Shown piece after piece: positions 21,677-22,362 of a DNA stretch of 64,000 nt. How positions within the stretch are numbered: the stretch's first letter is position 1; each line of letters begins with the position of its first letter. The stretch covers positions 1-64,000 of IMG/VR virus record IMGVR_UViG_3300028886_000060. One strand, written 5' to 3'. This DNA comes from a virus (lineage: Duplodnaviria > Caudoviricetes). Below the pieces are notes generated by a model. It saw only the letters and a program-made list of their open reading frames with translations. It had not been told where the DNA came from and ran no database searches. The position numbers were made by a program, and so were the translations under genes.

Positions 21677-21896
21677 AAAAGAGGAGGTCGGGGCCGAAGC
21701 CCCGAACATGACAAAGGAAGAATGTAACTGTTATGAATTATTACAAATGAAAGATCTCAATACCAGCAGACCAAAAAGATCGGAGATATGTAACCAATGG
21801 CAATCAATTACAAATAAGGACCGGATCAATTTGGGCGCATGGTCTGCTGATAAGAGTCTATGTTCAGAAGAACCTCTCCAAATCCATCTGAACATT
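21677..21896 (-). ncRNA. putative structured small RNA 1
   Basis: Late promoter AACT-N6-TAA at 21907-21895. Stems ATGTTCAGA/TCTGAACAT and CAGCAGACCA/TGGTCTGCTG, anti-SD+AUG segment at 21711-21724, cUUCGg hairpin at 21688-21705. Confidence 0.6.
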
Positions 21897-21916
21897 ATTT
21901 GCTAGTTATCAATATA

Positions 21917-22066
21917 AATAAAATATTTTCATTAGGGGACCGAAGTCCCCGTATGAAATATATTAAGAAAAGGAAGATGCTGTTGAATCATAATGCAGGG
22001 TATGATTCAACAAGAATGGAATCTGCTTTCAATATTCGATATAAATTCCCCTTTATATAGAATATT
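21917..22066 (-). ncRNA. putative structured small RNA 2
   Basis: Promoter CACT-N6-TAA at 22077-22065. 5' stem AATATTC/GAATATT, 12-bp stem TGTTGAATCATA/TATGATTCAACA, anti-SD+AUG segment at 21964-21979, cUUCGg hairpin at 21935-21950. Confidence 0.6.
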
Positions 22067-22084
22067 ATCGATAAGTGATTTCAA

Positions 22085-22362
22085 ATAATAAAAAATAAAA
22101 CCGGGACCGAAGTCCCGGCAGAGAGAGGTAAAAATGGGTACAACAAAACCCAAAACCCGTAAGCAAAAGGGGGAACAAATACTTACGGATTAAAAAATAG
22201 TGAAAGTCGCCGGGATAAACCCGGCAACACCACTATGTTTGAGGAATTGAGACATAGAACTTGAGACACAATATAAATTGTGATCCCATACTAACGTCGC
22301 ATATGGGATAATTTATTTACGACGCAGAATATTCGAGGGTGACTGGTCCTCATGTGAATATT
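22085..22362 (-). ncRNA. putative structured small RNA 3, possibly two products
   Basis: Promoter AACA-N6-TAA at 22373-22361. 5' stem AATATTC/GAATATT, several hairpins, internal terminator-like stem at 22197-22235, anti-SD+AUG segment at 22120-22136, cUUCGg terminator at 22101-22118 plus U tract. Confidence 0.6.

Follow-up and report, generated by a model that had tools for sequence, protein, structure and literature searches.

Two described systems come closest to the locus discussed here. In the parts of the source considered, the LhrC1-5 sibling small RNAs (sRNAs) of Listeria monocytogenes are described as binding mRNA through CU-rich motifs and impeding translation (PMC4132741). The c4 antisense RNA of phages P1/P7 carries exposed segments that pair around a ribosome-binding site (RBS) and block translation of a phage gene, according to the passages on it in a 2025 review of phage-derived sRNAs in which a term search found neither "jumbo" nor "lytic phage" (PMC12197685). 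For phage AR9, promoter consensuses are given as AAATATATATTAT-(6N)-G (early) and AACA-(6N)-TA/G (late), and the sections of that study used here mention antisense and internal promoters and no array of small-RNA genes (PMC5312081). The corresponding differential RNA sequencing (dRNA-seq) study of phiKZ, in the excerpt used, mentions a single predicted sRNA, for which confirmation failed (PMC8244752). Here we describe a tandem array of four putative sRNA genes at 21682-22373, on the minus strand of a 64,000-nt stretch of phage DNA (the window), which is the first 64 kb of the IMG/VR record IMGVR_UViG_3300028886_000060 (113,944 b, rated 42% complete). A search of a limited collection of literature for jumbo-phage sRNAs gave no account of such an array.

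The array is flanked by a 409-amino-acid (aa) gene upstream and, downstream, by an 85-aa gene with its early promoter. We divided it by hand, from late-like promoter motifs, into units A-D; an initial annotation of this DNA had proposed three sRNAs here, its sRNA3, sRNA2 and sRNA1 being our units B, C and D, and did not list unit A. It is probable, if not by much, that the units are four separately transcribed minus-strand sRNAs with AR9-late-like promoters, and that base pairing joins their exposed CU tracts to purine-rich sequence resembling the Shine-Dalgarno (SD) element. Judged from the sequence comparisons given below, the sRNAs themselves look real and, targets apart, this array of an uncultured rumen jumbo-phage family is on our analysis most likely of the LhrC kind. 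From the initial annotation, the minus-strand small RNAs seem to exist and the antisense segments it pointed out correspond to conserved, CU-rich tracts predicted to be unpaired; the targets that it assigned to them are not supported.

The four units are not copies of one another. Unit A (22203-22373) begins with the motif AACA(22373-22370)-N6-TA(22363-22362), which overlaps the stop codon of the 409-aa gene, and has a predicted start at 22362; it comprises two conserved hairpins and the single strand TATATTGTGTCTC, also conserved, and is closed by a GC hairpin at 22225-22209. Unit B (22090-22202), with the motif CACT(22202-22199)-N6-TA(22192-22191) and a predicted start at 22191, has two hairpins and then the unpaired CU tract UUUUUACCUCUCUCUG (22135-22120), behind which a C(UUCG)G hairpin (22119-22100) leads into a U-run that extends to ~22090; this GC hairpin followed by TTTTATTTTTT has the make-up of a classical intrinsic terminator. 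In unit C (21929-22077; CACT(22077-22074)-N6-TA(22067-22066); predicted start 22066), hairpin 1 carries the G-rich loop AAGGGGAA, hairpin 2 is formed by arms at 22012-22001 and 21992-21981, and the unpaired stretch AUCUUCCUUUUCUUA (21978-21964) precedes a C(UUCG)G hairpin at 21950-21935. Unit D (21682-21907; AACT(21907-21904)-N6-TA(21897-21896); predicted start 21896) combines a long-range stem with the unpaired segment AUUCUUCCUUUGU (21723-21711), ends in a C(UUCG)G hairpin at 21705-21688 and is poorly conserved except for its promoter-like motif and terminal hairpin. C(UUCG)G hairpins with stems of at least 6 bp occur only three times in the whole record, all in the array and all with UUCG on the minus strand. 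In T4, intercistronic C(UUCG)G hairpins are extra-stable tetraloops that close transcripts or stabilise RNA ends; the hairpins described here differ in being confined to one locus of the record, and other loops replace them in relatives. Differences listed for a DNA strain diverged by ~3% (run X5) include an AG insertion at 22119 that lengthens the unit B CU tract; its unit A has, at 22216/22236, one more A in the terminal-hairpin loop and, next to the stem, a 6-nt deletion.

Relatives were collected from IMG/VR, at first one locus through the 409-aa gene and four through a 2323-aa gene described below, and later 14 loci. From metagenomes, 21 of 29 loci were inspected and eight were set aside as the match stops before the C-terminus (L146, L147, L148, L150, L154, L157, L158 and L162). 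Closer relatives (47-76% protein identity) have 680-1100 nt between the 409-aa gene and the next promoter; in the distant relatives L008/G003, L156, L159 and L160 there is one hairpin only, and the promoter follows ~70 nt after the stop codon. The number of units across relatives ranges from none to four. In L005, a (GA)n microsatellite (8222-8248) lies between an RNA unit and the early promoter.

In alignments of units A, B and C the predicted stems are conserved with compensatory changes, and their G-U pairs fit the minus strand only. In a 10-sequence alignment of unit C, 94.4% of cells are paired compared with 74.8% in shuffles, a level that none of 500 shuffles reached; both sides have changed in 17 of 27 pairs, the paired cells include 15 G-U/U-G against 2 A-C/C-A, and partner-sliding controls give ~45% paired. 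These pair counts are biased towards a minus-strand RNA since the alignment was fitted to the structure of the model and the minus strand was used to define the helices. The hairpin stems of unit C are wholly different between lineages and the loops are kept (AAGGGGAA; CCUGCA in three sequences). A covariance model of unit C (R1), built from six sequences, found untrained homologues in L140, L005, L141 and L139 (E 2e-5 to 1.3e-3), in G004 (2.7e-12) and in G006 (1.4e-5). For unit A, RNAalifold gave 25 pairs, 12 of them changed on both sides, with 15 G-U against 4 A-C cells; in unit B, from an alignment of only four sequences, 6 of 12 pairs are changed on both sides (5 G-U against 1 A-C). Consensus energies on the minus and plus strands are -19.2 vs -13.9 and -19.5 vs -12.4 for unit C and -16.6 vs -10.8 for unit A, and are equal for unit B. 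Taken alone, the window sequence folds better on the minus strand for unit D (folding z -4.75, plus strand -2.12) and for A and B jointly, not for C. A search of 20500-25000 on both strands against Rfam 15 (E<=1) returned three chance-level matches to eukaryotic snoRNA and miRNA families only, all below the gathering scores.

A late-like motif of the form NAC(A/T)-N6-TAAT heads every unit, in the window phage and in its relatives. On the minus strand of the window it reads AACA-tgtgat-TA (A), CACT-attttt-TA (B), CACT-tatcga-TA (C) and AACT-agcaaa-TA (D), with TA at the N6 spacing in all four units and AACA exact in unit A only; the other three deviate from the AR9 late consensus in the tetranucleotide. 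The exact AR9 late layout is found in window unit A and in unit D of five relatives, and the motif recurs at homologous places in relatives with AACA, CACA, TACA or CACT as its tetranucleotide. The stricter pattern AC[AT]N6TAATAT occurs three times in 228 kb (both strands), twice in the array, and all three occurrences are intergenic against an intergenic share of 7.5%. A scan for sigma-70 promoters gave no excess of promoter-like sites (20, with 24.4 in shuffles). Candidate late promoters of the form AAC[GC]-N6-TA lie 38-70 nt upstream of large or structural plus-strand genes, at 13866, 24805, 27888, 42545 and 46386 (+).

The promoter at the other end of the array is of the early type. After hairpin D, the minus-strand motif ATATAGATATTAT(21655-21643)-N6-G(21636), at 21636-21655, agrees with the AR9 early consensus in 11 of its 13 positions and has the G at the correct distance. 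The early-type motif always stands 10-32 nt after a hairpin and 50-80 nt before an SD and ATG on the same strand, in the present record as well as in L004, L005 and L008, and the source record (G000) has the same succession of hairpin, promoter, SD and ATG at 41928 and 72385. From this constant layout on one strand, it appears that the early-type motif drives the 85-aa gene and that hairpin D ends transcription coming from upstream. The RNA polymerase (RNAP) beta-like protein of this phage is only 28-30% identical to those of PBS1, AR9-like and Staphylococcus jumbo phages. Copies of the early motif, each read towards the following gene, are located at 7010-7027, 13808-13825 and 21638-21655 in the window and at 64454-64471, 72385-72402 and ~113918-113935 in G000; a second variant, TATAAATAATATGTATAT, is seen at 41928, 55902 and G000 64357. 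A conserved box, TTTTCTATGCTACC in the reading of the promoter strand, is found 20-60 nt upstream of several early-type promoters here and in relatives (window 13849-13862 (+); G000 near 64410 and 113880; L004 5864-5900; L005 ~8235-8246; L008 ~7805-7816). The early promoter of the 85-aa gene lies between the arms of a perfect 10-nt inverted repeat (21593-21602 and 21677-21686) that is not kept in L004 or L137. RNA reading through on the minus strand would carry CCUCCUCUUUU directly behind hairpin D, and this segment could base-pair with the 85-aa gene's SD; transcripts starting at the early promoter would be without CCUCCUCUUUU. Another long intergenic stretch, G000 72056-72462, has two GC hairpins beside an early-type promoter and may contain more non-coding RNA.

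Every unit contains a pyrimidine tract that is mostly unpaired in predicted ensembles and usually placed 5-20 nt before the terminal hairpin. The predicted probability of being unpaired is 0.53 for the tract of window unit C and 0.97 for that of unit D, compared with whole-RNA means of 0.37-0.39, and the unit B tract of the initial annotation is unpaired in the minimum free energy (MFE) fold. In unit C the unpaired tract AUCUUCCUUUUCUU is nearly invariant, with CUUCCUUUU in 7 of 10 aligned sequences and also in L163. The unit B tract is CU-rich yet variable in L134, L136, L137 and L163 (CCUCUCUCU, CCCUCUCUUC and CCCCUCUUUUUU). For unit D, the hairpin-adjoining tract of the window is missing in L004, the nearest relative with a unit D, and relatives' unit D has ACCUCCUUU(C/G) in mid-RNA. 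CU-rich tracts by a terminal hairpin persist in L168 and L169, in which the 409-aa protein is only 37-40% identical. A DNA pattern made from the unit C tract was too loose to be of use in finding further units; it matched at least 114 stretches and, among those fetched, only L004 had a following GC hairpin. The loop of unit C hairpin 1 (22052-22045) is itself SD-like and could pair with the unit's own CU tract (21978-21965), as an internal SD/anti-SD pairing or a switch.

The likeness to LhrC lies in adjacent small-RNA genes that each have a promoter and a terminator (predicted here from sequence) and in CU-rich motifs held in loops or single strands by the terminator, as far as the LhrC source describes them. 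There is no sequence or Rfam relation to LhrC, the phage units are unlike each other, and the setting differs in being a virulent-type jumbo phage, presumably with transcription by a phage polymerase. On this reading, the phage non-virion polymerase would transcribe each unit independently, probably late in infection. The CU tracts could then act as seeds that pair with purine-rich, SD-like mRNA sequence, and such pairing may block or tune translation initiation as the CU-rich LhrC siblings do. The c4 RNA, in the account used here, differs in being processed from the operon of its own target and in having target-specific segments; no specific target stands out for the present units.

The initial annotation had gone further and given each sRNA one fibre or late RBS in the window: unit D the RBS (46409-46421, +) of the 1601-aa gene (46431-51236), unit C that (26153-26166, +) of the 572-aa coiled-coil gene (26171-27889) and unit B that (28232-28244, +) of the 109-aa gene (28248-28577). 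All three sequence matches are present as it described them. On the plus strand, ACAAAGGAAGAAT (21711-21723) agrees with ACAAAGGAGGAAT at 12 of 13 positions, TAAGAAAAGGAAGAT (21964-21978) agrees with TAAGAAAGGAAGAT with one gap, and AGAGAGGTAAAAA (22122-22134) is identical to 28232-28244 with ATGGGT a few bases on in both. Its own caveat, that SD regions are alike and chance matches inflated, is borne out by the SD background. In the start regions (25 nt upstream) of 111 genes of the 113,944-b record, a heuristic, home-made selection of open reading frames (ORFs) from which four were dropped and to which two were added by hand, 64 of 111 share a 13-nt stretch with another start region at 12/13 or better, and for 13 of 111 a 13-mer is shared without any mismatch. 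For the unit C segment, the RBS of a minus-strand gene (52098-52436) is a closer match than the claimed target, agreeing at 14/15 with no gap, and the RBS of 90765-91610, outside the window, has the same GAAAGGAAGATTTG as that target.

Pairing was ranked with RNAduplex (a 30-38-nt seed against -30 to +15 of the 111 starts) and again with the whole unit and crude opening energies. Unit D with 46431 ranks 8/111 by duplex, 48/111 with opening energies and 11/21 among plus-strand genes of the window; for unit C with 26171 the ranks are 9/111, 3/111 and 2/21. Unit B with 28248 forms the best duplex of the 111 (-28.6 kcal/mol, 6.4 ahead of the next, covering SD and start codon) and ranks 3/111 with opening energies and 1/21 in the window. 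When the reverse complements of the 111 real start regions were used as decoys for unit B in the same register (-17 to +14), 10 of 111 found a foreign partner at least as good as -28.6 kcal/mol and 3 of 111 had as large a gap to the runner-up. The twin counts, ranks and decoys thus place three real matches within the SD background. Better or equal partners exist for unit C (52098 and 90765) and for unit D, whose best accessibility-corrected partner is the start region of 30988-31539 (-) (total -21.3, hybrid -27.4; next -12.8), far ahead of the claimed tail-fibre RBS. The best alternative partner of unit C, 23649 (hybrid -31.0), was rejected, its RBS not being kept in relatives.

Conservation was followed for the 572-aa gene. 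Its RBS is GAAAGGAAGAU in the window, GGAAAGGAAGAUU in G004 and GAAAGGAAGAG in G001, and the unit C tract reads AUCUUCC... in all three, so that segment and RBS are both kept in these close relatives. The RBS diverges in G005 (AAAAGGAGUGAUU, tract CCAACCUUUUCUUU), G006 (UAAGGAGGUUUU, tract CUUCCCUUUCUUUC) and G002 (CAAAGGAGUCG, tract UUCCUCCAUUCUUC), and the unit C tract shows no compensation beyond the SD core; G003, with GAAAGAAGGUUU, has no units. The 109-aa gene was found in none of the five records G004-G008, among them G006, which has two CU-rich units and a completeness rating of 100%, and among G001-G003 it is present only in the unit-less G003. None of the 34 inspected RBSs of 109-aa homologues (of 80 loci) resembles that of the window, and the contigs of the 80 kept homologues do not overlap with the 14 contigs that have the 409-aa gene, so that no pairs were formed.

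It is therefore quite improbable that units D, C and B repress the 1601-, 572- and 109-aa genes and in this way tune fibre stoichiometry or host range. No Pfam family backs calling the targets "tail-fibre" or "late", and their PHROG matches are weak or to families of unknown function. With matches inside the SD background, a seed that does not compensate, a 109-aa gene missing from relatives and a unit D segment not kept in the nearest relative with that unit, neither the assignment of one fibre or late RBS to each sRNA nor RNA-level control of host range is supported. A different reading of the same segments, that they are real RBSs of small plus-strand genes of 65 aa (21708), 35/27 aa (21953/21977) and 19 aa (22135), has in its favour that a hairpin followed by an SD-like sequence and ATG is the usual intercistronic layout of this phage, and that the 19-aa ORF has good SD spacing. 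It is highly improbable on several counts. The ATG after the first SD-like segment runs straight into TAA and the second has ~1 nt spacing; neighbouring genes and the early promoter are all on the minus strand, which G-U counts and consensus energies also favour. None of seven small ORFs on either strand is present in a collection of 15 billion proteins that does hold the flanking 85/98-aa and 109-aa proteins, relatives do not keep the plus-strand ORFs (in L004 no equivalent one reaches 50 aa), and the conserved AAGGAAGAT falls in different frames in the window and L004 owing to a 4-nt length difference. With no ORF conserved on either strand, the units are, as far as sequence comparison goes, non-coding.

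Whether the array could instead be a structured spacer, a stack of terminators or a 3′ untranslated region (UTR) belonging to the 409-aa gene, shielding the early 85-aa gene from transcription upstream, or a sponge for a pyrimidine-binding protein, is a more substantial question. The array sits exactly between the gene end and the early promoter, the unit-less L008, L156, L159 and L160 have one hairpin in that place, and unit number is variable. Among three RNA-library runs and one DNA run compared with the window, a 631-nt RNA-library contig (22144-22774) reaches from inside the 409-aa gene into the array, which is weak support for a spacer since it is unstranded and could be DNA carry-over; no contig is listed over 21676-21822, and the coverage shows neither expression nor its absence. 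Promoter-like motifs, conserved at the head of every unit, speak against it, and a mere terminator would have no need for loops and single strands that are conserved while the stems co-vary. The other terminators of the record have no CU tract on the transcribed strand, and intergenic CU tracts beside hairpins elsewhere in the record are only the antisense of ordinary RBSs near a palindromic terminator. We consider the spacer or sponge somewhat unlikely. It is unlikely, and less probable than the spacer, that the array mimics the anti-SD tail of 16S rRNA. Such RNAs, made in bulk late in infection by the phage's own polymerase, would cover the SD sequences of an entire class of host or early phage mRNAs. 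CCUCC is the universal anti-SD core, and it is contained in ACCUCCUUU(C/G) of relatives' unit D.

Several points weigh against four separate sRNAs with SD-pairing tracts. The hairpins of units C and D are without an immediate U-run, the U-rich stretch beginning several bases past the stem. Units B and C have CACT and unit D AACT where the candidate late promoters of structural genes have AAC[GC]-N6-TA; with the fourth base differing, the promoter class is uncertain and the units may form a separate class. The RNA-library contigs are unstranded, patchy and 2-5 deep and so cannot show RNA starts, ends or strand. The CU tracts might bind protein rather than mRNA, and neither the three targets of the initial annotation nor our own best matches include one with conserved or co-varying complementarity, a point that also speaks for the spacer or sponge. 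The hand-made gene list and the model-fitted alignment mentioned above belong here as well.

The array belongs to a rumen jumbo phage with AR9/PBS1-type multisubunit RNA polymerases. The window encodes a 1440-aa RNAP beta-like protein (PHROG 3148, E 1.5e-137) whose best GenBank phage matches are to PBS1, AR9-like and Staphylococcus jumbo phages (28-30% identity), and near-identical DNA covering part of the stretch occurs in 20 public-run rows, every one carrying a bovine or gut metagenome label. GC content of the record is 36%, and the phage genes carry strong AAGGAGG-type SD sequences. The intergenic stretch (21584-22371) sits within a run of minus-strand genes, with 24352-24627, 23649-23981 and the 409-aa gene (22372-23601), which served as anchor for fetching relatives, upstream and the 85-aa gene (21326-21583) and 20934-21329 downstream. 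The 85-aa gene has its true start at ATG 21583 after the SD AAGAGGAG, and its exact protein is in a public collection. Neither Pfam nor PHROGs assigned a family to the 409-, 85-, 131-, 109-, 1601- or 2323-aa proteins, and the GenBank phage collection gave neither a DNA nor a protein match for the region or the 409-aa gene. The 2323-aa ORF (13918-20889, +) is convergent with the minus-strand cluster and has 33-49% identity to proteins in the related jumbo-phage contigs L005, L006 and L008. Directly after the 109-aa gene, a 597-aa protein (28621-30414, -) has HNH endonuclease matches (PHROG 59, E 5.6e-31).

It is important to separate what the different readings would mean for the phage. Control of one fibre RBS by each sRNA would bear on host-range biology, and the present data do not support it. 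Anti-SD mimicry, if true, would amount to RNA-only re-programming of translation in jumbo-phage infection in place of one-RNA-one-gene control. Very little work exists on sRNAs in virulent and jumbo phages, and the array would offer concrete candidates for testing RNA-level control of translation in this group.

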